Positions 29,103 through 54,690 of a DNA stretch of 64,000 bases are shown here, piece by piece. Location: the NCBI GenBank assembly GCA_963575745.1, contig CAUYUJ010000284.1, positions 1-64,000 of the forward strand. Reading direction: 5' to 3'. Every line of letters starts with the position of its first letter. The first letter of the stretch is position 1. Position numbers and translations under genes: made by a program. The notes beneath the pieces were generated by a model. It did not search any database, was not told where the DNA came from, and was given only the letters and a program-made list of their open reading frames with translations. Source of the stretch: Prorocentrum cordatum. Its lineage: Eukaryota.

Positions 29103-29769
29103 TCCAGGCTTATAAGATGGGGCCGGAGCAGAGGGGCTCGGAAGACCGTGCCGCACCGCGGATGCATCGGCGATGTGGCCCCATGTTGACTATCTACCAG
29201 ACCACCTCAACCCAAACCGAAGACCCGAATTTCGGGTTGGGGGAGGTACGGGCCCCATATGTGTTTTTTCAGTGTTCCCCGACCCCCCCCTCGCGCCACT
29301 GCAAATGGGTGGCGACATGTGGAGCCCGAGCTTCTTCGCGCCAGCGTCGCCGATGCATCGCCGGCGTCGCCGGCGCGTCGCCGGTGCACATCTCGTCCAT
29401 GCTCAAAGAGGAGACAAGAACGTCATCAATAGAGGCGTTCGACGGTCCGCGCAGATTTCTCGGATCGGCGCCAGGAAAACCCGTGGCGGCGACTCCTGCG
29501 CCGCCCCTGACGCGCAGCGCGTGACAGGAAGGCGGGTCCAACGCAGATCCAAGAAATCCGCGCGGACCGTCAAAAGTTGATGTTGATGCCACTTTTTCCT
29601 CTTCGAATATAGCCGAGATACATCGGCGATGCATCGGCGACGCCGGCGATGCATCGGCGACGTCGGCGCGGAGACAGTCGGGCTCCGCATCGAGTCGCAT
29701 CGCCGATGCATCGGCGGTGCACGCAACCCTCCGACCCCATCTGCTCCAGCCCCATCTGATAAGCTGGGA
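29103..29769. mobile_element. CATCGGCGATG-family TIR element with nested fragments
   Basis: TIR TCCAGGCTTATAAGATGGGGCCGGAGCAGA / TCTGCTCCAGCCCCATCTGATAAGCTGGGA; internal GCATCGGCGA / TCGCCGATGC units; no TSD. Related copies at ~752-1374, ~7968-8183, ~19690-19880 and 62589-62955. Confidence 0.65.
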
Positions 29770-30269
29770 GGGAGGAGGAGGAGGAGGAGGAGGAGGAGGA
29801 GGAGGAGGAGGTGGAGGACGAGAAAGAGGAGGAGGAGGAGGAGGAGGAGGACGACGAGGAAGCCCATCTGGCCTCTGGCGAGCACGTGGATCCCGATCGA
29901 TACATCGGGGTCGGTCGCGCCTGCCGCCCGATCGGTCGCGGTGGCAGGGCACATCGCGCATCGACATCGCTCTGCGGCAGGGGGCCATCCGCGCCTCCCT
30001 GCACCCTGCCGCAGGCAGCGGCGCCCGCGACCGCGCTGCGGCCACCCCCGCGGCGGGACGCCGCGACAGGGCCGAGGCGGTGCTCCAGAAGGAGCTACGC
30101 ATCGGCGAGAGCAAGACAAACGTGGCAACGCTCGGGTGCTTCTGCGACTCTTTCAGGCGAAAGACATCCTCAACAGGCACCACTCGGTGCAGCAGCACCA
30201 GCGCAACCAGCAGCACTTGCAGCACTACGACCTCGACAATATGGCGAGTAGAAGCTCAGGAAGCCGACC

Positions 30270-32380
30270 TGCAAGACATCCAAATGGGGGACAGCCTTGG
30301 CAATGGAGGATGCAGCAAGGTAACGGCAACTGCCAGAAGGACCTTCAGAAGCCGCACGATGATAAGCAGCATGGATATCAGAACTACCATGACTGGCAGA
30401 AGAATGGATGGAAGAGCTCTCGCAAGAGGCCAACCTCACGTTAGACACCAAAGAAGCAAAACAATAGTGCACAGAGTAGCAACAACTACGACGACTACAA
30501 GATCCACCCAAGCGCGAAGCAATAGGAAATTGTCGGACGTATTTTGCCATCCACGATTTCAGTTGCACGCCAACATGAGAGCTTTACCTTCCCGCCCCAA
30601 GAGCCCGACATCAGAAGAATCCGGAGGGCGACCAAGAATTTCACGTTTCGCACGACTAGCAGATCAGGTCATCGGCACAGTGCAGGCCCAAGTGGATCCA
30701 AGCAGATTAGAACACGAAATAAGCATCACGAAGTGCACGATCGCCATGATGACAGAGCCAAGTCAGCGGGTTCACGATTGCCGACAACAGATCGCCAGCC
30801 TGCTGAACGGGAAGAGCGAGATCATGCACAAGAAGAAGGACCGTTCGAAAGCCTGCGTTCCCCGGTCAAAGATTCAAAAGGAATGCGAGGCCTCAAGGAG
30901 TTGCTAGACGACTCTAGTTGTGATGGAGACGAGGAAGATATTGATAAAGGAGAAGACACTAAGAAAACACGCTGCTGCACTCCATACCCAACTAAGAACA
31001 CCGACAGGAGGCCAAGTAAAGAACGAGAAGGCGGACAAGGAAGTGTCGAACAAAATGCTCAAGGCCCTCAACCAACGACTCGACCAGCATCAGTACTACA
31101 CGCTGGTCGGAAGAAGTAGGTAAAAACATGAAGTGGGAAGGCGGAGAAAGTCTATTGTGCCCAGGCCCTCCCAGAGAATAACAAAACACAGCAGAAGCAT
31201 GCCGATTCTTGAAGTAGGAAGGCGCTTGAAGTAGATTGGGAGCTGGGAATCTAAAAATACGTACTTTCAACGACCGGCGTGTATCAGACAGATAACCACC
31301 AGAACCTCGAGTATGTCCACAAACGGCACAAGGCACAGCCACTCCGCAACGAGGGGCTCAAGGAGCATCAGCTCGAGCGTGCACAGCAGAAGCAGCAGCT
31401 CATGGTTTACGAGCACGAAGCTGCCCAGAGGACCCTGCAAGTTACTGCCAACGCATTGAAGCGCCAGGAGCACGCACATCACTTCGAGATGGAGAAGACG
31501 ACAGCAGAAGGACGGATGCTTACTGAGGAGCTCGAGACAGAGATGCAGCACAAACTTCAGCACCAATTGAAGACGGGACAATCGGTGAACCACGATGGCA
31601 TGCACCGCATGGAAGTCGAGGAGATGAACCGCAAACTACATTACGAAATATCTATCATCGAACATAAGTACCGCGAAGAGATGGACTAGCACATCGCCAG
31701 CATCCAGGACCAGAAGCGGCAACAAGACAACGACAAACACAACCAGATGAAGATGAAAGAGAAGATGCTACATGACGAAGCCGTCCAACTCCAACGAGGA
31801 TACGGAGAAACGCGTCATTATGACAAGCTGCTGAAGACAGGGAGCAACTACATGCTGAACACCTCAAGGCACAATCCGAGATGACGCACGCATACCAAGA
31901 GGAGATCCAAAAGAGGAGCATCGCAGAACGGCAACGACAGCAATATTATTATATATGAGATTTTCAGCATGAGGCAGCAGACGCGGAACTCCGGGAATGC
32001 CCACGCCAAGGAGCAGCTACTCATTCAGTACGGAGAGATGCAGGCTCAATTCTCGGAGTACCAGGGCCACCAGTTTCGCCAGCTCGAGGAACAACACCAA
32101 CAGCGCGAGGCATTCCAGGCGTCGCTGGAAATGGAAGCACATCGTCACCGAGCCCAAGAACAACAGCTCGAAGAGGCTCTACAGAAAGCCCAAGCCACCC
32201 AGGACGACTTTGACAAAGACCTCTTCGGGAAGCTCATGCACGAACTCCAGGATCGGAAAGATTAACAACGACGAGATAAATTCCTGGAACAGATCGAAGA
32301 GACCCACATCCAGGAGGAGACGGAACAATGCCTGAACGCCGTCATAACAGGACCATGCGATCATCCGCTACCAGAGCATG
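30270..32380 (+). pseudogene. ORF1-like coiled-coil protein remnants
   Basis: Fragments rich in E/Q/K/H/M with helical character (e.g. LKEHQLERAQQKQQLMVYEHEAAQRTLQ; FRQLEEQHQQREAFQASLEMEAHRHRAQEQQLEEALQKAQ) broken by stops and frameshifts; located 5' of the enzymatic domains. Confidence 0.5.
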
Positions 32381-35300
32381 CCGCCTACATCTCGGAGTAT
32401 CCTGGAGAAGCAAGGGCCACTACTGCGAACGCGGCATCAAGCACAACGCCCGACAGCGACTTCAGCCTCTAGGACCTGGGCTTCGCACCGCAAGCCCCCA
32501 ACGACCCGCCACCGCCGCCCACCCCCCCCCAACCCCCCACTGACGACGACCCACAATGTCACCCCCTCATCCTTTCAAACGACGATGACTCCCACTCCTA
32601 TCGCCGACGACGGATACGGATCATCACTACGGGGGAGACCCAACACGCCCATCACCGACATTCAACACGACTCTGACCCTGCTGACGACGACATACACAC
32701 ACACTCAACGTGCACGCACTACGCCCACACCCACAGAACAACCAACCCCTTTCCAGCCACCTACCCCCAGCCGCGGCTACCGACAACAATACCATCTTCC
32801 CAGAAATACGCACCATGTCAGCCCCCCCTGTCTCCAGGCATGAAGACAGCGGATCGCCCCCCACACCCACAAACGCTATCCTAATCAACCTTGTCGACGG
32901 CAACGCACCAACTAGCGCCAACTCGACGACCCATCGCCAGCATCAGCCCGACTCAACCATTCGACCCAACGCTACCCCCACCAAGGTTCCACATCGGAAC
33001 TCCAGAGCGTTGCGCTTCAGCACCACCTCCACGCGCTGCACTGAAGAAGACAGACAGGACCACTAAGCGCAACACCGAGCCACCCAAGAAGGTCCGCATC
33101 TGCGACGCGGGCGATGGATTCGAGGACCCTGGGGACAGGCAGCCCAGCTTCATCGGCCACGACGGGGTGCCTGAGGGGCCTCTACCAAAAAACTAGATAC
33201 GCCGCTGCACCCTGGCGGGCAATTGGGCCAGGAATGCAGGACACGGCACACACCAAGAGAAGAAGACCCAACGAAGCGCACCGACCGAGACCCCTGCGTT
33301 GATGCTGTCGCGCTAACACTGGACCTCCACACAGAGCGACTGGCGAGCTCTGATCGACCACGCGACACCCAACCAATATCAATTTCACCTACCACCTACC
33401 CTACACTAGCTGCGACGCATGACCGCTGTACTTTGCAACCGGGGGCGGCAACACAGCAACATGGCACGCAGCGGCACCACCACTCAGCTCACAAAACCGA
33501 CAAAAAAGGAAAAAAATCAAAGGCCAACAAAACTAGTCATGTTCCAGAACCCCCATCACTCCCCCTACACCCCGACGCAGAGAGACGGCGACATCAAGAG
33601 CAGGAGAGCCACTCGCACGCCACTCCTGCACCAACGCTAGCAGGCGGGACACTAAAATTGGGACTGGGGAGACTCCCCTTAGCCCAACACGCTGATCGAC
33701 AGACGGGTGCCCAGGCTGGGGCGCCGACCACCAAGTCTCGATCCTCCGCCCCGCCCACGCAGTCACCACCAACCCCCAACATCAGTTCCAGGCTACCGCG
33801 CTCACTGGGCCGAGACGACCTCAGTCCACCCCGACCTGAGCGACCAGCGGCAACGCCACATACCATGACTGGCCACTTCGGCTCGAAGGCACAACAAATG
33901 TGTTCTTCTACCCGGAGGGCAGGTGATGAGACGCCGCAAGAGCGACGACCTCACAAAAGCACGAGGCATCACCAGACCCTGCACCCTCACTCCATCGCGG
34001 GCAGCAGCTTCGACGATATCGGGATGACCTCCCTTATCGACTCGTCTGGACATCGTAACAGAGGACACGACCACCGACGCGAGACCATTGCAGCGAACGG
34101 CGAAGGTACGGAGCACGGTGACACTAAGCTCGAGTGCTACCAGGAACCGAATCACGAGGCAAACATTCACGGCGACTCCACCCGCTCCAGCCACACCGAA
34201 CACATTGACAACATCAACGAAGTCACCGCAAGAAGACGTTTCGCTCAAGTACAACGGAATCCCCGCAAACGAAACCAAACACCTAACACTACCATCACTC
34301 CAACCTCCAACCGCTACAAAATCTTCGAGGCCATAAACGGAAACACGGAGCACTTCGAAACACAAAACGAACCTACAGACTTCCGACACTTCACCACACT
34401 ACATCAGCCACACGACGAATACAACGGACAGCAGGCAATCCAGAATGCATCCCTGGACACCTGCGCGGCCTCCAACGGCACTAGCGATAGAACAAAAGCC
34501 AGACAAACACGACCGACCTCGACCGCATCCGCGATGCAAACTTTCCGAGTCTACAAGACGTCGTTCCAGCGATCCACCGCGCACCTCCCCACGCCAACCA
34601 CCGTCGACAGCAAAGACCAACAAGAACACCCCCAACACAACCAAGACGACGCACCCGCACAACAACCACACCCGCACAACAACCACGAGAACATCGCAAC
34701 CACACCCAGCAGGCCGACGACAACGGGCAAAAACATCACCACCTTGGCGTCAGGACGCAGAGACCCGAGGAAGCCCCGACAGCGTGGGAACACCCCAGGC
34801 AGCGGTCGCCACGTGGAGCTGGAGGCGTTCGGACGCAAAGTCCTGGGGACGCCCCGAATGCGTGGACACGTCGCCATCCGAAGCTGGACATGACAGGACG
34901 TGCGAGGACGACGACGAACATCCATCGTGCACGGCACAGAGCGCGAGAAGAGACAAACACTACGATAGCACTCGCGCGCTGCGGAATCGACTCGACCTCC
35001 AGCAGCGACCACCAATGGCTGGCAGCAACGACGTACACCACCACCATCGACACAACCAAGACGACAGCCATCAAAAAAACACCCACCAACAGTGTCGCAG
35101 CGGCCCAGGCGAGGCAAGTATCAAACGTCGAGACGGGCTCGAAGGGCGGGGAGGCAGGACGAATACTGTCTGCGCCTGCCAGGGGGGATGGTGAGGGGCA
35201 GGGGTTCGCCCCCCACCTAGGGCACTGTGACCCCTAGCCATAGCGGGGCGAAGTGGGACCGCCGCGACTTCCACTTGGAGTCGGTGCATGGAGGCCAACC

Positions 35301-35643
35301 AGGTGCGCTAAACAACCACACACCACCACTTCCTACTACAAGCAGACCCCACCATCAACCTACAGCCGACACGACTTCCCCACAAACATCTACTCTCACA
35401 CCTGACCCTCACCACCAGCCAAGCGACCAGCCACAAGTTCACGCCTCCAGCCATGTACAGACACTCATCGCCAACCCACCTCAACACAACATCCACGTTG
35501 GCCCCAGAGGACCCATGAAAGACACTATCGCAAGTAGCAGGCCACCTGTGCTAACCTTCGAATTTGACGAACGGGCCATGAACGATACATTGGACTATGT
35601 ACTGCGGCACTTCCCATCACGCCCTCTACAACAGCAGCACCGA

Positions 35644-36069
35644 ATCCACCCCTTCACTGACGGATCGAAGCATCCCAAGCAGCCTGACGACGATGCGTGG
35701 GCCGTGGTCATCGTCGGTGAGGACCGCGACTTTATATTCCAGGGCGCCATCATCGGCACACATACAAAAGGTACTGACATCGTAGCGAGCGGACACGGGA
35801 ACGCCGAGACTACCTCGACCACAATGGAAAATACAGCACTCATAACGGCCTTCGCGTACGTCAGGTACATATACATGGACAGCACCATTACTATATTGAC
35901 CGACTCCCTCGGGGCTCTCAACCTGGCTACGCGAAAGGCTTGCACCCACGATTCCGAGCTGGTCAAAACCCTATGTACTTACTACGACATCGTCAAGGAT
36001 CGGATCGAACTTCGCCGTGTACACGCCCACGAACACAAGCCGTGGAACGAGCTGGCCGATAACGCAGGA
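35644..36069 (+). pseudogene. RNase H (type I) domain of the retrotransposon
   Basis: FTDGS ... TSTTMENTAL ... ILTDSLGAL ... VHAHEHKPWNELAD: all four D-E-D-D acidic residues and the His loop are present, within ORF 35227-36213. Confidence 0.9.
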
Positions 36070-36300
36070 TATCATGCACGCCTACAGCAGATTCCACACC
36101 CACGACCTGAATGGAGCGCAGCTATGGATGGGGCGTTTCAACGTGACTGGGAATTGCTGGTTCACGCCGACACCAACACCAAGCAGGCGTACCCGACACT
36201 ACTAGCAGATTGACTTCGAGCCCCACATGTAAGTACCGAAGCCGCAGCACCCCATATTAAGAGGACGTCCGAAGAAAGGATGCGATCAACGGAAGTGGAC

Positions 36301-36960
36301 ATTGCCTACGCCACATTCAACCTGGAGACAGGACGAGAACCACGAGCTGGCGCAAAAAAGAGATCTGACAAGATAATGCGACTAAAGAAACTCATGGCTA
36401 CGCTCTACGACGACGGCATCCACCTCATCGGAATCCAGGAAGCAAGGACGGTATGGGGCTCACGTGAGTCGTCCAATGCTACTTGCGTGAGCGCGGATAA
36501 CTAGTGTCATTGCCAGCGGCCACGAGTGGTTTTGACCATGTGATCTGCGTATGACATGCCCCGCATGGAAAGGCCAAACCACCCGACGAGAAAGAGTTCT
36601 GGAATGCACTCCACACCCTAGCCAGAAAGTGCAGCATCACGATTATGATGATCGACGCCAACGCGCGTACAGGAGACATTACGAGCACAGCCATCGGGCC
36701 AGCAGGACTTGCGCAACGGGAAGATAACAAAGGCATGCGCTTCCATGAGTTCGTACTGGCCCACCGCCTATCGGCAGTCAATACCTATCAGAGCGGAGGA
36801 GGCGACCACTACACATGCCAATCCAGCACCGAGGTCCACCGTATCGACTATACCGTTATTGCTACCAATATGTTGGAGTGAATTACCAGCAGTGCTACCA
36901 TATTCGGCATCGACAGCGACAACAACCGAAAGAGAAAGGACGACCACCTGCCTGTCCGAA
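36301..36960 (+). pseudogene. APE (EEP-fold) endonuclease domain, disrupted
   Basis: ATFN..GIQEART (frame 1), then HAP..FW..IDANARTG..N.G..F...AVNTY..HRIDY..DDHLPV (frame 3); frameshift, apparent deletion after QEART, in-frame stops. Confidence 0.9.
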
Positions 36961-37879
36961 CCACCTCGCAGTACCAAACTTCAACCATCCACAAGAGATT
37001 GGCACCTAGGCTCGATGAATGGAAGCTTCGAGATCAAGACCATAGGACCAAATTCGCCGACATCCTCGATAAGGTGCAGCACCCAGACTGGGACACGAAC
37101 GTCAATGACCATCTCAGCATCATTACTGAAGCCATGACTACTGCAACCCAACAAGTTTTTTGAAGTGAGCGCACTACCCCACGGAAACCTTTACATTACA
37201 ATGAGATCATTTACACTTTTGCGGGCGCGACGGGCTATTATCAAGACGATCAGGATAGTCAAGAGCAATGGACTAATATCCAAGCTATCAAGAAAAAGGC
37301 TCGATTACACCTCCAAAATGCTCGCGAACGACGCCCTGCTACCCGACCCGACAGACAACCTCTACCTGATAGACATCAGCAGCTGCATGTTAATCGTCAC
37401 GTCTGCCATCATCCTCGCTAAGAACAAGCAGCGCAAAGTCGCCCTCACCAGCGACCCTCAAAACCGCGAGTTCCAATATTTGTACGACAACCTATGCTAT
37501 CTCATCCACGACACAAACCGCACTACCAGGAGCTGGATAGAGCACGACAAGGACGACTTCCTAGACAAAATCGACATCGACATGAATACCTCCATCATCA
37601 CCAACACTCACAAGGACGAGTGGATCGCTGCAAGAAAGCTGCTGGCCTTTGGAAGGAAGCCGCCAAAGAACACTTGACTCCACTCATCAGAGTGTCGGCA
37701 GATGGAGAAATACTTACTAACGAGACCGACATCGCCAAGCACGCCCTCCGCTTCTACGGGAAGATCGAGCACAACACCGAGACCGGCGCAGCGGGAGCCG
37801 CCAGACACTACAAAGAGAAGAACGCAAGCGAGAAGCCCGATGCTGAGATCCAAAACATCATGACCAGAGGACATCTCAC

Positions 37880-39020
37880 CTCCACGCTAGCAGCAGCTCG
37901 CCCAGGACGCAGAGGAGGACCCGATGGACTTACGGACGACATGGCAAAAGCATCACCAAGCTCTATGGCGAGACTCCGCCACCCCACCCCAGTCAAGACG
38001 CAGGTGCAGTCCACCGAACCACTGGCCGCAATGGGGGGCTTCTCAACTCACTTCTACAAGGGCAACGGCTCAAAGGAGAAGCAGTCTTCATACCGAAGCA
38101 TCTTACTGAACAACACAATCAGGAAATTGAACTCGTCTTTCATGAGGTCTAATGTCAACGGTAGATTGCCATCATTACTTAAGGATGCACAGTGCGGAGC
38201 TAGACCGAGCATGGCCACGGACTTTGTCACCCACGCGGTCATGGCATTCACCACTGACTGCAACAACAAAGGCAGGTCTGGCGCGATCATCTTCTTAGAT
38301 GTACGTGAATGATGTCATGATGTGGTGAAAGAGTCTACTATGCGGCGAATCACAACGATGGATGACTTAGACACTCTCATCGACAACATAGAGATCCCGG
38401 CATGGCTACGACCCGCACTAGCCGAACAGATGCGACTGCCTACTTCAAGGAGCGACGACATCGACGACAAACACCTGTGCGCACCGATTGCAGACCACCA
38501 CACCTCCAACTGGATGACCGCTCGCGAAGCCACCCACTTCCAGACACCTAAGACGAGCACGCGACAAGGCGTACCATTCTCGGACATTGCCTTCAATCGA
38601 CGCTTCGCCCTACTCCTCAACGCGATCGACCGAGAGGCTCAACGCGAAGATACGGAATCAACGGGACACCCTACCCCGCCATGTGCCGACCCGATCTTCG
38701 ACAACGAACCCCATGACGGCGACAACCTCGTACATCCATCCGACGTTGACGACCGCACGAGACTCATCTCGACAGCGGATGCCACCGAGCTGGTCGACGC
38801 CACTACCACTGCAGCCACAAGCTTATGTACAGCAGCATTCACCTACGGCCTGAAGCCACACCCCGGCAAGACAAAAGCAATAATCAACCACTACGGCCGC
38901 AATGCAAAAAAAAGAACGACAACGACTTGCTAAAGACTTTGATCAACCACTTGGACCTGCCAAACCTTGATAGTAAGGTAAAGCTCACCGACCAGCAGAA
39001 GGCCCTGGGCACGGTCATTA
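37880..39020 (+). pseudogene. Non-LTR reverse transcriptase domain, disrupted
   Basis: GGPDGL, FYKGNG..SSYRSILL, Q.G.RP, IFLDVRE*CHDV (stop 38310-38312), TRQGVPFS..F, DVDD (38742-38753; YxDD equivalent), GL..HPGKT, KALG. Confidence 0.9.
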
Positions 39021-39659
39021 CGAGAGGAGCAGCTATGAAAAACAGAGATTGCGAAGAAAGACCCTGCCTACAAAGCTAAGATCAAGTACGTCCACGCCCT
39101 GTCTACATCCGCCCTACCTTCAACCATCACATATGGAACCCAATGACAACAAAGACAACAGCTTCATAGCCAAGAAGTCTGCGGAACCGTACCGAGCAGC
39201 AGTCGTGCTGCCAAAGACCAACACGCCGACACTCCATCACACGGCCAAAGAGGTCATTGGTGCTACGGGCGTTCCCGACTTCTGTACTCATCAGCGAGCT
39301 GCGAGACATACGTACAGTCCGCGCATGTTTAACCACGCCCCACGTATACCACTTCGTCTGCTCGATGCTACAGCATCAGTACGACATGGATGGGTGGACA
39401 TACTGAAGGCCGATGTCATATTCCTGCACAAATACCTCAGACCTGAAAGATGGCCCACACACAACCGATCTGACGCCGACATCATCTCGTGGGCCAGGAG
39501 TACGCCTAAATAATTCAACGGGGCCGTGGACACCGCCATCAAGGCCTTCATCCGACATGCTGGCGACGAGGCCAAAACAGATCGGACCGACCAGATGTTC
39601 GGCATACATCAAGCCGATGGCGGAACAAATACTACGACCCCCACGATTTCTGGACCATA

Positions 39660-40095
39660 CGTATGCTACCTCTGCGAGCGTATCACCGCCACAAAGCAGG
39701 GCATGTAGAGAACCGAACGCTATACACCGACGCCTTTGTCTGGCCTCACACTGAATCTCGCACAGGGAAGCGGATCCTGGTGTATACGGGATCTTGGTAT
39801 CTTGGTTTACCCAAGAAAACGAAGAAAAAGGTATACACCACACCACCCCGACGTCGTCCCCGACCCTCAACAGAGTCCTGGGATTGAAAAACCGCCCGCC
39901 ACTGGCATTGTATATATGTCCCAGTTTCCGACATGCTACCCCTGCGAGCGTATCACCGCCACAGAGCAGGGTATGGCCATCCACATGGGCAGGGACCACA
40001 AGCACTACGACGACCCCCTGGACTGGGCCACGGGCACAGCCTGTCGCTGCTGCCAGACGGACTTCCACTCGAACCCAAGACTAGTCAAGCACCTC
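39660..40095 (+). pseudogene. C2H2-type zinc-finger region
   Basis: CYLCERITATKQGM* (truncated), CYPCERITATEQGMAIHMGRDH (Cx2Cx12Hx4H), CRCCQTDFHSNPRLVKHL. Confidence 0.75.
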
Positions 40096-40361
40096 AAGAT
40101 CAGCAGACGCCTGGCACAGTGCATGTGGCACGGAGCTCACAGAGGATCTGATCACCGAAGACATCACCAAGCACGAAAGGGATCACAACCAAGAACGGCC
40201 GAGAAGGGCGACCAGAAGCATACGGCGACGTACCAGCACATAAGTGCGACGGGACTCCGCTCCCACTCCTCGACTTCTCACCACAACCACCACCCGTTTA
40301 TGCACCACTCGACCCGCACCCCGCACACGTTAACGAACCTCCACCACAGCAACCCACACGA

Positions 40362-40850
40362 CAGTGCATCATCTGCATCGACAACGGCGACGGGAACCAC
40401 ATCACCTTCTTTCAGCACCTCAGCTCAATCGGAGTATGCACGATACGAGGACTTGATCTCATCCACATACCGCTCTACTATGATCGCGACAGCCTTCACA
40501 TACGACGTACGGTGAAACGATTCAAGACGAACATGCAGAAGAGTAATGTTGCGGGTAACTAGGCTGATTTCCCATGGACGACATGGAGAACCTCTACAGA
40601 TGACGCTAATCGATGCAGAATCACAGGTGGCAGAAGCATCGACCATCCATGGGAGAGGCCTAGCACTGGAGAACGTACCTACGCTATCCTCGAGCAAGCC
40701 AACGACGACCTCAGGGACATCATCGAGATAGCCCACAAAAAGTTATGGAGCCCCATGACCATTATGCACCCAGCATCAGATAATGCTACGCTCAGAGGCC
40801 TCACCATTTGGAGTACGCCTCAGATGCAGCACATCTTGCACCAAGATGAA
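40362..40850 (+). pseudogene. Degenerate cytosine DNA-methyltransferase-like C-terminal domain
   Basis: Frame-3 manual translation QCIICIDNG...NVAGN*ADFPWTTW...GRSIDHPW...EQANDDLR...IMHP...TIWSTPQMQHIL. Order and spacing follow my recollection of the DNMT-like tail of dinoflagellate LINEs (LFSG / GPPCxTW / RSxxxPW / GNxLL / EHP / SIWxxP). Catalytic positions altered; stop at 40560-40562. Confidence 0.5.
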
Positions 40851-41962
40851 CATCTTAGCGACCAACCACCACGTCGACGGGACTCACCCGACGTATGATA
40901 TACGCGAGCACATCGCCAACTCTCTCGATGCAATGGTGGCCGAACGTTGGGGGATCAGCGAAGCCACAACTCCAACCGACCCCATGGCGCAGCACGAGAT
41001 GCCGCACTACGACACATGCTCCTCGGCCAACGATGGCGGCCGGGATACGACTCAGAGTTCCACGACCATGCCATCGACCTGAGGCACAGCATCAGGAGCG
41101 CCCCCCCCCCCCAAGGAGGAGGGAAGGAGGAGGAGGAGGAGGAGGAGGAGAAGGAGGAGCACGCCCACCTCTGATGACCGCCGCCGCGGCGGCCACCCTC
41201 CGCCCAGGAGCCGGGCCCCAGGACCACGGGCTTCCCCCCCTCATCCTCTGGCCACAGGAGCCTCCTCCCCCCCCCCCTCTGGTCCTGGGCCCGCGCGCCC
41301 TCGCCCGGCTCCCGTCCCCGCCCCCCTCCCCGCCTCGGGCGGGGTCGGAGGTCGCAGCATAGCAGAGCTGCTTCCGCGCCCCGCCGCCCCGCACTGCTGG
41401 ACACCCGGCGGCCCGGCTGCTGGCACTATCCGGGGCGGGGGGTGTCTGGAATGCGGTGCTTCCAGTCGCGTCCAGGATCCTGACCCCCTCTGTGCGCCCC
41501 TGGCCCGTCAAGAGCCGCGGACGCTCTCCTTCTCGTCCTTCGGCCACGCCGCCTCCTCCTCTTCTCCCTGGGGGTCGGGGCCCTCGCCCCTCGCCCGCGC
41601 CGTGTGCCCCTCGGCGCCCCCCCACCCCTCTCGAGAGTCCTGGAGGCATCCTTCCTCTGCCCCCCCCCCCCCGTCCGTCCGTCCTGGCTTCTCTTTTGTT
41701 GGGGCCCTGGGGCCCTGGGGCTCTGGGGCCCTGGGCCCGCGGGACCTGGCGCCCCATGCGGCCCTCGCTGGGCCCTCCTCGGCCCTCGCTCCTTGCCTTG
41801 GCCTCCGGAGGCCTCTCCTGGGCCCCCCCCCCGTGAGCGGGCGCGGCGGGCCCGCCGCGCGCCGCCGCAGCGGCAGTGCCCGCAGCGGCCGCGCCCCCGA
41901 GCGGAGGCACGTGGCCGCCTTCGAGAGGTTCGAAAGGAGGACGAGGAGGACGAGTAGGACTC

Positions 41963-42129
41963 TCGGGCCGGGCGAAAGGAAGGGATAGCCAAGCTGATTT
42001 TCCCGGCACCTCCTGGAGCCAGGAGGCGCCCATGTATCGAGGTGGGCCCGGCGGCGGGGCCGAAACCAGCTGCATGCAGCAAATTTCGCACCCCCCCCTT
42101 CCCCTATCCCCACCTTTCGTTCGGCCCGA
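41963..42129. mobile_element. 167-bp MITE, 5-bp TSD
   Basis: TCGGGCCGGGCGAAAGG / CCTTTCGTTCGGCCCGA; TSD GACTC; same family as 24911-25105. Confidence 0.85.
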
Positions 42130-51629: not shown

Positions 51630-53290
51630 GCCACACCACCACCACCACAAACTACCACACCACCACAAACCACAACACCACCACCACCACCACCGCCACA
51701 ACCACCACGACCACCACAATCTATCACAATAACAACCACGACCACCACAAACCACTACACCACCACCACCAACCGCTTCCACCACCACCACCACCACCAT
51801 CCACCACAAACCACCACAACACCACAACAACCACCATAAACAACCACACCACCACCACCACCGCCGCCACCACAACCCACCACCACCACAACCCACCACC
51901 ACCATCACAAACTACCACACCACCGCCACCACAACCACCACCGTCACCACCACAACCACCCACCACCACGACCACCAGCACCAGCACCTCCACCAGCACC
52001 TCCACCACCACCACCACCACTACAACTACCACCACAAATCACCACACCACCACCACCACCGCCACAATCACCACCACCACAACCCACAAACCACCACCAC
52101 CACCACAAACCACCACACAACCACCACCACCGCCACCACTACCACCACCACAACCACCCACCACCACTTCCACCACCACCACCACCACCACATCCCACCA
52201 CCAATACCTCCACAACCACAATCCACCACCACCACCACCGCCACAACTACAACCACTACCATCACCACCACAAACCACCACCGCCACATCCCACCACACG
52301 TCGTGAACCACCAAAACACCAACACACAACCACCACCACCACCACCACCACCACACAACCACCACCACCACAAACCACCACCACTACAACCCATCACCAC
52401 GACCACCACCACATCCCACCAACACCACAACCACCACAACCACCATCACCACAAGAAAGCACCATACCACAACCACGACCACCACCACCACCACCACCAC
52501 CACTACCACCACCACCAGCACCTCCACCAGCACCACCACAACCCACCACCACACCACCACCATCACCCCACCACCACCACCACCACCCACCACTACAACC
52601 ACCAGAACAAAACACCACACCACCACCACCACCACAACCACCCACCACCACCACTTCCACCACAACAACCTACCTCGCGCCACAACCACTACCACCACCA
52701 CAACCACCACCACAAACCACTACACCACCACCACCACCTCCACCACCACCGCCACAACCACAACCCACCACCACAACTACCACCACCACCACCACACGCC
52801 ACCACACCACCACCTCCACCACCACAACCGACCACCACGACCACCACCACATCCCACCACCACCACAACCACCACCACCACAACAAACCCCCACACCACA
52901 TCCACGACCACCACCACCGCCACCACTACCACCACCACAACCCACCACCACCACCACAAACCACCAAACCACCACCATCACCATCACCACCACCACCACC
53001 ACCCAGCACCACAACCATCACAACGAAACACCACTACCACCACCTCAACCTACCTCGCACCACCACCACAACCACCAGGTCAAACCACCACACCACCACC
53101 GCCACCAACACCACCACCACAACCCACCACCACAACTACCACCACAACCACACGCCACCACACCTTCTCCACCACCACCACCACAACCACCACAACCACC
53201 ACAACAACCACCACCAACCACCACACTACCACCACCACCTCCACCACCACCGCCACCACCACCACCACTTCAACCCACCACCACCACATC
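51630..53290. repeat. Degenerate (CCA)n microsatellite, ~1.65 kb
   Basis: Direct reading; explains the poly-H, poly-T, poly-P and poly-V ORFs. Confidence 0.95.
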
Positions 53291-53940
53291 CTCAGAGAGG
53301 CCCCAAGAGACAACCAAGAGGCGCCCAGGAAGCTTCACAAATGTCCCTCAAAGGCCTCCGAGAGCCCTCCGAGGAGACCCCAAGAAGCATCCATTAGGAC
53401 TCTGACCCAAAACCAAGGCACGGTGGCTGGAAGGCCCGAAGGCCATGAGGCAAACACCTTTCGACGGAAGCGCCCCCAATGCCGTTTCGACGGTCTCCGC
53501 CGACGCCGGCGCATGCCCGAAGAGAGGGAGAGAGGACAAGGAGGGGAAGAGGGGGGAGAGGGTGGTGGTTCGAACCCCCCCCCTCCGTCCCCCCCCCCCC
53601 TCCGTCACGGGAGAAAGGGGGCGGGGGGGGGAATTCAAAACCCGCCCCCCCCCTTCAATCCTGGGGGTGGGGGGGTCCGGTTCCAACCCCCCCCCCCAAG
53701 GCCTCCAAGACAGCCCAAGAGCGCTACGAGACACCAAAGATGGCCCAAAGACGGCCCACGAGGGCCCAAAGAAGCCCCAAGAGCGCTCGAAGAGGACCCC
53801 CAAGAGGGCCCAAAGAGGCAACAATCATTCCGAACCATCCTGTGGTGTTGGGTCCTCGTTTTGAAGAGACAGCGCTCCGCGTCACTCCTCCGCTTCCTCC
53901 TTCCTCCCATCCTTGCCTCTGCTCTCCGCATGCCCATCCC

Positions 53941-54690
53941 ATTTCGGTACACCCCTCACACGCTTCGTGGCCCCATAGGGAGCTCCGCCGAAGGTCCCAG
54001 TGGCAGGGTTCGCATGGCCCCGCCGCGTCCATTTCGGCACACCCCTCACACGTTTCGTGACTCCTTGGGAGCTTCGAGGAAGGCCCCAGTGGAGTGTTCG
54101 CAAGGCACCGCCGCCTCTATTCCGGCACACTCCTCACACGCTTCATGGCACCATAGGTAGCTCGGCCGAAGGCCCAAGTGGCAGGGTTCGCATGGCACCA
54201 CCGCCTCGATTTCGGCACACCCCACACCCCTCACACGTTTCGTGGCCACTTGGGACCGAAGGCCCCAGTAGCAGGGTTTGCATGGCACCGCCGCCCCGAT
54301 TTCGGCACAATCCTCACACGTTTTGTGGCCCCACAGGGAGCTCCGCCGAAGGCCCCAATGGCAGGGTTTGTATGGCACCACCGCCTCTATTCTGGCACAC
54401 CCCTCACACGCTTCGTGGCCCCATGGGGAGCTCCGCCGAAGGCCCTAGTGGCACGGTTCGCATGCCACCGCCGGTTCCATTTCGGCACACCCCTCACACG
54501 CTATGCCGAAGGCCCCAGTGGCAGGGTTCGCATGGTACCGCCGCCTTCATTTCGGCACACCCCTCACAAGCATCGTGGCCCCATAGGGAGCTCTGCCGAA
54601 GGCCCTAGTGGCAGGGTTTGCATGGCACACCCGCCTCCATTTCGGCACACCCCTCACACGTTTCGTGGCCCCACAGGGAGCTCCACCGAG
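53941..54690. repeat. 90-bp tandem array, ~8.5 diverged copies
   Basis: ATTTCGGCACACCCCTCACACG-type anchor at ~53941, 54031, 54119, 54209, 54299, 54389, 54479, 54549, 54639. Confidence 0.9.

Follow-up and report, generated by a model that had tools for sequence, protein, structure and literature searches.

A conserved domain at the ORF2 C-terminus of a decayed Prorocentrum cordatum LINE and the question of a methyltransferase origin

Does a dinoflagellate retrotransposon end in a disabled DNA methyltransferase? The question is raised by a stretch of Prorocentrum cordatum DNA of 64,000 nt (positions 1 to 64,000 of contig CAUYUJ010000284.1, assembly GCA_963575745.1), referred to here as the window. 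In it, an initial annotation had noticed a frame-3 peptide directly after the zinc fingers of a long interspersed nuclear element (LINE). The peptide was taken for a hidden domain resembling C5 cytosine DNA methyltransferases (C5-MTases, DNMTs) with all putative catalytic motifs altered, and possibly for the mark of a lineage carrying a catalytically dead enzyme. A conserved domain is indeed encoded at this place, termed the tail below, and it forms the end of the second open reading frame (ORF2) of a dead element. Its identity as a methyltransferase is not borne out by the profile and motif-order comparisons.

A conserved coding domain behind the zinc fingers

All seven peptide pieces quoted in the initial annotation are present in the translated window: they lie within 40152-40898 on the + strand, in frame 3, interrupted by a single in-frame TAG. 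The read-through peptide of the tail (P0001) was used as a phmmer query against 1.84 billion representative proteins at E<=0.001; this query is the decayed window copy, and an intact relative or a profile would reach further. Five proteins were recovered, four of them true relatives: P0002 (158 aa, E 7.8e-41, 51% identity, a metagenome ORF from an ENA assembly), P0003 (507 aa, E 5.4e-10, 26% identity over the matched part, P. cordatum gene model CAK0895001.1), P0004 (198 aa, E 2.3e-7, a metagenome ORF from an ENA assembly) and P0005 (321 aa, E 8.9e-5, 42% identity over the matched part, P. cordatum gene model CAK0886101.1). The fifth, P0006 (853 aa, E 3.4e-4), is a tandem-repeat protein and was dismissed as a relative. 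P0007 (158 aa), a 90% twin of P0002, also derives from ENA assembly data. Both gene models carry the record title 'unnamed protein product, partial' and neither is annotated; the relatives are known as proteins only.

The four protein relatives lie in the exact frame of the window peptide, and the tail is therefore coding sequence and not a chance ORF. The window DNA is GC-rich and such DNA abounds in long chance ORFs (in 10 kb, 98 ORFs are 60 aa or longer), yet with relatives down to E 7.8e-41 the probability that the frame holds no domain and arose by chance in decayed 3′ sequence is practically nil. Uninterrupted ORFs span the full lengths given above in P0003, P0004, P0002 and P0007, among them two near-identical copies on different contigs. 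P0003 additionally matches the region after the reverse transcriptase (RT) core (residues 10-190 against window frame 1, 40% identity, E 7e-33). Thus, the linker and the tail are part of the same ORF2. Between the frame-1 zinc-finger stretch and the tail lie a Pro-rich linker of ~70 residues and two frame changes near 40125-40190. As judged from sequence, this small LINE family, the named members of which are P. cordatum gene models, has a conserved domain C-terminal to its zinc fingers.

Conserved blocks were read from an L-INS-i alignment of the window copy and its relatives. The first three are R(Q/H)x(I/V)(I/V)xIxD, (R/S)GLDxIxI and GxIA(A/G)IY(A/V)(E/N)(I/L)PxxxW; they are followed by R(S/T)xxxP(W/R)GxP, a helix with AN..R, PxxxxH and GxTxWxxP. 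P0003 and P0005 each lack one block. C-terminal of GxTxWxxP lie a strand and the helix RExxAxxLDxM(I/V)xxRW, and the window copy has this helix in frame 1 (40849-40950). The frame-1 residues of this segment, NILATN...REHIANSLDAMVAERW, match P0005 234-268 weakly (E 0.019 in a search of five sequences), and P0003 has a similar helix. The tail seems to continue beyond the end first assigned to it, in frame 1, after a frameshift or deletion near 40835-40850. Overall it is a module of some 200-240 residues in which strands and helices alternate, its fold class being surmised rather than shown.

The window copy of the LINE is dead, because its frame jumps repeatedly and it is broken by stops at 36211, 38310, 39706 and 40560. 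The marks of decay are the TGA at 38310, the TAGs at 39706 and 40560, and frame changes near 40125-40190 and near 40840. In the window copy, the TAG at 40560-40562 replaces the Tyr codon of the IY block of the relatives. A 162-base metagenome contig is identical to the window over 40540-40679, TAG included. One seawater metagenome (n=1) contains 0.08 of the sampled window words, and three further pieces from it, ~40 bases each, fall within the zinc-finger region. No RNA dataset is listed as containing these words, a result that is uninformative on expression or on other copies.

Further searches enlarged the family little. Word-indexed homologue searches returned 0 of 107 candidates for P0001 at near lengths and 0 of 4517 for alignment A1 at longer lengths, while alignment A2 at near lengths yielded, out of 3252, only P0004 and P0005; no full-length ORF2 relative was found in any of these. 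Scans of metagenome contigs were likewise negative for P0003 (0/120 stretches) and for alignment A5 (0/379), as were scans of viral (0/16) and genome (0/14) contigs. The window holds no second copy of the tail.

The methyltransferase question

C5-MTases are recognized by the FxGxG loop of motif I, which binds S-adenosylmethionine (SAM), the Pro-Cys nucleophile of motif IV and the ENV glutamate of motif VI. At the position of motif I, after strand 1, the tail reads DDGYGG in P0002 and P0007, DNGDGN in the window, TDRHRQ in P0003 and ADIPSC in P0005; there is no aromatic residue, and Gly is not conserved. A Gly-rich loop occurs only in P0002, P0007 and, degraded, in the window copy. At the motif IV position Pro is present in all five covering sequences, followed by W, T, T, R or G and in none (0/5) by Cys. 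The motif VI position reads MHP in the window, VHT in P0004 and VHE in P0005, with a gap in P0003, and Glu comes first in 0/3. The catalytic motifs are thus missing throughout the lineage, no relative carrying FxG, PC or ENV, and their absence is not peculiar to this decayed copy, in line with the possibility raised at the outset. Nor are DNG, PW and MHP, the residues taken for altered motifs, themselves fixed: DNG gives way to DDG, TDR and ADI, and of 'PW' and 'MHP' only the Pro and the His are conserved.

Profile comparisons gave no sign of the family. Against Pfam, NCBIfam, PHROGs and PDB at E<=10, none of the five members matched a methyltransferase or anything meaningful; three families surfaced at E 0.13-0.21, namely the C-terminal domain of retroviral integrase and two PHROGs without an assigned function, none of which names the tail. 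By hmmscan at E<=10, PF00145 was found in 0/5 members and likewise in none of the window pieces; at E<=0.001 it was found in 0/150 window ORFs of at least 160 aa, including those at 29525-35234. For profile-profile comparison with hhalign, reference profiles were built from prokaryote genomes (26 C5-MTases of PF00145, 29 Methyltransf_11, 22 PIN and 29 RNase H sequences). The tail reached P 0.63-0.88 against C5-MTases, 0.42 against Methyltransf_11, 0.2 against PIN and 0.37-0.8 against RNase H. As a positive control, the RNase H-like ORF farther upstream in the window reached P 1.9e-4 (probability 47%) against the RNase H profile. An absence of similarity to Rossmann-fold methyltransferases had been named in advance as speaking against the domain call, and for profiles this is what was found.

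The order of the motifs, said to fit that of C5-MTases, was compared with chance by cutting the tail profile into 14 blocks and setting its Smith-Waterman profile-profile score against 300 block permutations. With two gap settings, the real score was attained by a fraction of 0.63 and 0.11 of the permutations when the N-terminal half of the C5-MTase profile was used, and by 0.76 and 0.17 with the profile as a whole. Since 11-76% of permuted orders match or beat the real one, this test does not set the motif order apart from chance. To the question of whether the tail is a METHYLTRANSFERASE, the sequence tests answer no: such an identity is not shown. Of the proposed lineage of dead pseudo-DNMTs, the family-wide lack of catalytic motifs stands; for the methyltransferase identity, no test gave a significant result.

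Candidate explanations of the tail

The explanation favoured here, with a probability of about 0.5, is that the tail is the decayed ORF2 C-terminal domain of a dead APE-type LINE of ~11.6 kb, and that it is an accessory domain that does not methylate. The domain order of the element would run RNase H, APE endonuclease, RT, zinc fingers, Pro-rich linker, tail. Placed behind the zinc fingers, the tail may hold the element RNA, or the target DNA once it is nicked, while target-primed reverse transcription proceeds; such a role is suggested solely by its position, to which the C-terminal segments of ORF2 proteins in other LINEs offer a parallel. In favour of this explanation, Pfam matches to RNase_H, Exo_endo_phos_2 and RVT_1 come in the right order, although each is weak. 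The succession of APE and RT on one strand (+) marks the element as a LINE, weakly, as both matches fall below the Pfam cut-offs, and the assignment is backed by the homology of 39148-39681 to P0003.

Several points weigh against it. All of the LINE domain calls lie below Pfam's own cut-offs, and the function given to the tail is an inference. Polar residues are conserved, such as the Asp after strand 1, the Asp in GLD and the Glu/Asn in IYAE, as well as the Asn and Arg of the AN..R helix and the His after strand 4; to judge by these residues, the tail could also be an enzyme. The profile tests were low-powered, the query profile having an effective sequence number (Neff) of 2.2, and the reach of hhalign is short: DNMT against Methyltransf_11, a true distant pair, gave only P 0.003 and 0.11. 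Additionally, in the ESM Atlas the nearest named cluster to P0004 is PF00145 DNA_methylase (0.86, with 156 shared features; the tool's bars are 0.9 and 170), and, of its structural neighbours, only class I SAM methyltransferases have a named fold, with template modelling (TM) scores of 0.45-0.46, the bar being 0.5.

These Atlas values are also the chief support for the strongest rival, in which the tail is a much diverged methyltransferase-fold domain (a C5-DNMT or another class I Rossmann methyltransferase) that has lost SAM binding and catalysis lineage-wide and acts as a reader or decoy of nucleic acid. The ten best named Atlas matches of P0004 all belong to the family or clan of PF00145. 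A permissive hhalign path places IVCIDDGYGG...RGLD on motifs I and II of Methyltransf_11, the very layout proposed in the initial annotation; P0002 and P0007 have GxGG after strand 1; and the helix-strand order of the low-confidence models is compatible with the fold. However, every Atlas value falls short of its bar, and P0003 293-507, the second relative tried there, gave an Atlas model with a predicted local distance difference test (pLDDT) value of 0.44 and no usable match. The permissive layout has P 0.42, the profile comparisons found no similarity, the real sequence of blocks does not outscore permuted ones, P0003 and P0005 lack the Gly loop, and Cys and Glu are nowhere at their positions. 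The DNMT of a known dinoflagellate LINE is, moreover, located in ORF1 (de Mendoza et al. 2018; PMC5890265).

AlphaFold2 models reached pLDDT 41.0 for P0004 (three-row alignment) and 37.3 for the window copy (four rows), both of low confidence and both with alternating strands and helices. Foldseek, run on the P0004 model, found matches at chance level and nothing at E<=0.001, its best TM score being 0.30, and no methyltransferase is among the 47 rows listed. The Atlas's own model of P0004 has a predicted TM score of 0.63, and unnamed Atlas clusters lie nearer to it (TM 0.70-0.74) than the named ones. It appears rather unlikely, although the best of the alternatives, that the tail has a methyltransferase fold. 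Equally tentative is the fuller proposal that a LINE lineage of Prorocentrum type fixed a pseudo-enzyme of this fold at the end of ORF2, with SAM loop, Cys and Glu lost in all members, to read or shield nucleic acid during retrotransposition.

It is improbable that the tail is instead a small metal-dependent nuclease or phosphoesterase with a three-layer alpha/beta fold (PIN-, Toprim- or FEN-like), giving the element a second catalytic activity. Conserved acidic and His residues do stand at or near predicted strand ends (I-D-D, GLD, IYAE, VH), and PIN is the lowest of the four profiles, with the hhalign P given above and a permutation fraction of 0.027 at one of two gap settings. With ten tests made, neither value is significant; when hhalign sets the tail against PIN, it leaves all of the conserved blocks unaligned; no family matches; and the element already encodes APE and RNase H.

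Still less can be said for an RNase H-like domain, canonical or circularly permuted, which is very improbable. The low-confidence P0004 model has strands at 50-53, 59-60 and 73-75, then a helix and a strand, as at the start of the RNase H fold; against this, the P of 0.37-0.8 contrasts with the 1.9e-4 reached by the RNase H ORF farther upstream in the window, and the element already has such a domain. GN*AD (the asterisk marking the stop) was tried as the last RNase H motif and dropped: it reads IAAIYAE in the relatives, and GNxAD is private to the window copy. Likenesses to receiver, HAD, UDG, deaminase and metallophosphatase domains, seen by eye, were rejected as chance, as was the DNMT order in the permutation test.

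The surrounding element and known systems

The features of the LINE to which the tail is assigned are collected in Table 1.

Table 1. Features of the LINE and its tail in the window (positions in nt)
Feature	Position	Strand	Details
Probable extent of one LINE-type unit, ~11.6 kb	29500-41100	+	Sense strand A-rich; strand skew, borders inferred
RNase H-like domain in ORF 35221-36210	35650-36066	+	Frame 1; Pfam RNase_H E 3.8e-5, 24.3 bits (cut-off 25.8), residues 144-282
APE-type endonuclease	36214-36881	+	Two frames: 36214-36504 frame 1, 36555-36881 frame 3
Reverse transcriptase core	38079-38636	+	Frame 3, TGA 38310-38312; RVT_1
Region after RT core, common to P0003	39148-39681	+	tblastn
Cys/His zinc-finger-like stretch	39655-40151	+	Frame 1, TAG 39706-39708; CxxC...H...H patterns in translation P0008
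Pro-rich linker (GRP...PAxKCDxxPLPLL), conserved	40152-40355	+	Aligned in P0001, P0002, P0003, P0005
Tail domain, front and middle	40356-40848	+	Frame 3; seven conserved blocks common to P0002/P0007, P0003, P0004, P0005
In-frame TAG within most conserved tail block	40560-40562	+	Window GN*AD vs (A/G)IY(A/V)(E/N) in relatives
Probable end of tail domain and ORF2	40849-41082	+	Frame 1; ends TGA 41080-41082
(AGG)n microsatellite, possible 3′ end of element	41114-41159	+	TRF period 3, 15.7 copies, score 71

The extent of the element was estimated from strand composition. The skew of A over T is +0.18 to +0.54 in every 500-base bin of 29501-41000, then +0.10, then -0.31 after 41000; it ends at the (AGG)n microsatellite, just past the ORF2 stop. 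An unbroken A-over-T bias from ~29500 to 41100 that stops at this repeat suggests one element of ~11.6 kb. No second APE or RT copy was found elsewhere in the window by tblastx.

The RNase H-like ORF contains the stretches FTDGS, MENTA, LTDS and NELAD, presumably the four acidic-residue motifs of RNase H. The second APE piece matches Exo_endo_phos_2 of Pfam, 'Endonuclease-reverse transcriptase' (E 6.3e-5, 23.3 bits, cut-off 27.4). The first shares frame 1 with the RNase H ORF, one stop (36211-36213) lying between them. RVT_1 is matched by residues 220-405 of the read-through translation P0009 (E 0.012, 15.8 bits, cut-off 29.6), a weak match, although it is the top family and in the expected place; SDVDD at 38690-38704 (+) is presumably the third catalytic motif of the window RT. 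For the RNase H ORF and the RT pieces alike, nothing relevant was found in the PDB. In LINEs, RNase H typically comes after RT, and the order RNase H-APE-RT would be unusual if true of intact copies. In the literature on Prorocentrum LINEs and on the position of RNase H in non-LTR (long terminal repeat) elements, neither a description of this LINE family nor one of RNase H ahead of APE turned up, which does not prove absence.

Pfam calls no zinc-finger family on the Cys/His stretch. Within it, a 43-base direct repeat on the + strand (39663-39705 and 39933-39975, 93% identity) makes two copies of the beginning half of a zinc finger, CxxCERITAT(K/E)QGM, and the TAG follows the upstream copy. Toward the 5′ side, the A-rich bias begins ~6.7 kb ahead of the APE domain (29500-35200, +). 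In this part, a frame around 32000-32300 is rich in Gln and Glu and looks like a coiled coil, and an ORF of 572 aa at 33175-34890 (+) is rich in Pro, Thr and His; both are without a Pfam match, and they may represent ORF1 and a long low-complexity spacer.

Outside the element, the segment directly after it (41100-42000) has a GC content of 0.73-0.75 and Pro/Arg/Gly-rich frames on both strands, with short GC-rich tandem repeats at 41298-41392. Farther along, 52001-54000 (+) is a low-complexity C/A-rich tract (GC skew -0.62, AT skew +0.62). Very long overlapping ORFs occupy all three + frames at 51733-54157, and the tract gave many spurious tblastx matches.

Dinoflagellate genomes are packed with LINEs, the proteins of which are barely described. 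The window copy adds a LINE family whose ORF2 ends in a domain unrecognised by any curated library and which, apparently, has RNase H ahead of the endonuclease. If the tail were a dead methyltransferase fold, it would represent a second, independent uptake of methylation machinery by dinoflagellate retrotransposons, as a non-enzyme; if it is something else, target-primed reverse transcription would have gained a new accessory domain. The result for the window itself is modest: a dead copy and an orphan domain, with an attractive motif reading that statistics do not support.

The P. cordatum models P0003 and P0005 are homologous to the linker and tail and, in the case of P0003, to the region after the RT core as well. 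The C-terminal segments of other LINE ORF2 proteins offer a looser comparison. Human L1 ORF2p has a Cys-rich C-terminal domain; here too a domain comes after the RT and a Cys/His motif in an APE-type element, and by analogy its role might be to hold template RNA or target DNA. These segments differ from the window tail in having no sequence similarity to it (no PDB match at E<=10), and the tail is larger and of mixed alpha/beta character.

The statement that dinoflagellate LINEs carry DNMTs holds for the SymbioLINE-Dnmt elements of Symbiodinium (de Mendoza et al. 2018; PMC5890265); in them the DNMT sits in ORF1, upstream of the RT ORF, and not at the end of ORF2. That DNMT was found by hmmsearch, with key positions conserved, whereas the window tail closes ORF2 and has no match to a DNMT profile. 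A methyltransferase-fold pseudo-enzyme at the end of ORF2 would be distinct from the ORF1 DNMT of SymbioLINE-Dnmt. Like the window element, SymbioLINE-Dnmt is a dinoflagellate LINE that adds a further domain to APE and RT (PMC5890265). The two differ in that SymbioLINE-Dnmt elements are described in the same text as CpG-depleted, whereas the window element has a CpG observed/expected ratio of ~1.0 (0.98-1.03, against 0.78-0.85 in the flanks) and therefore shows no CpG loss of the SymbioLINE-Dnmt kind.
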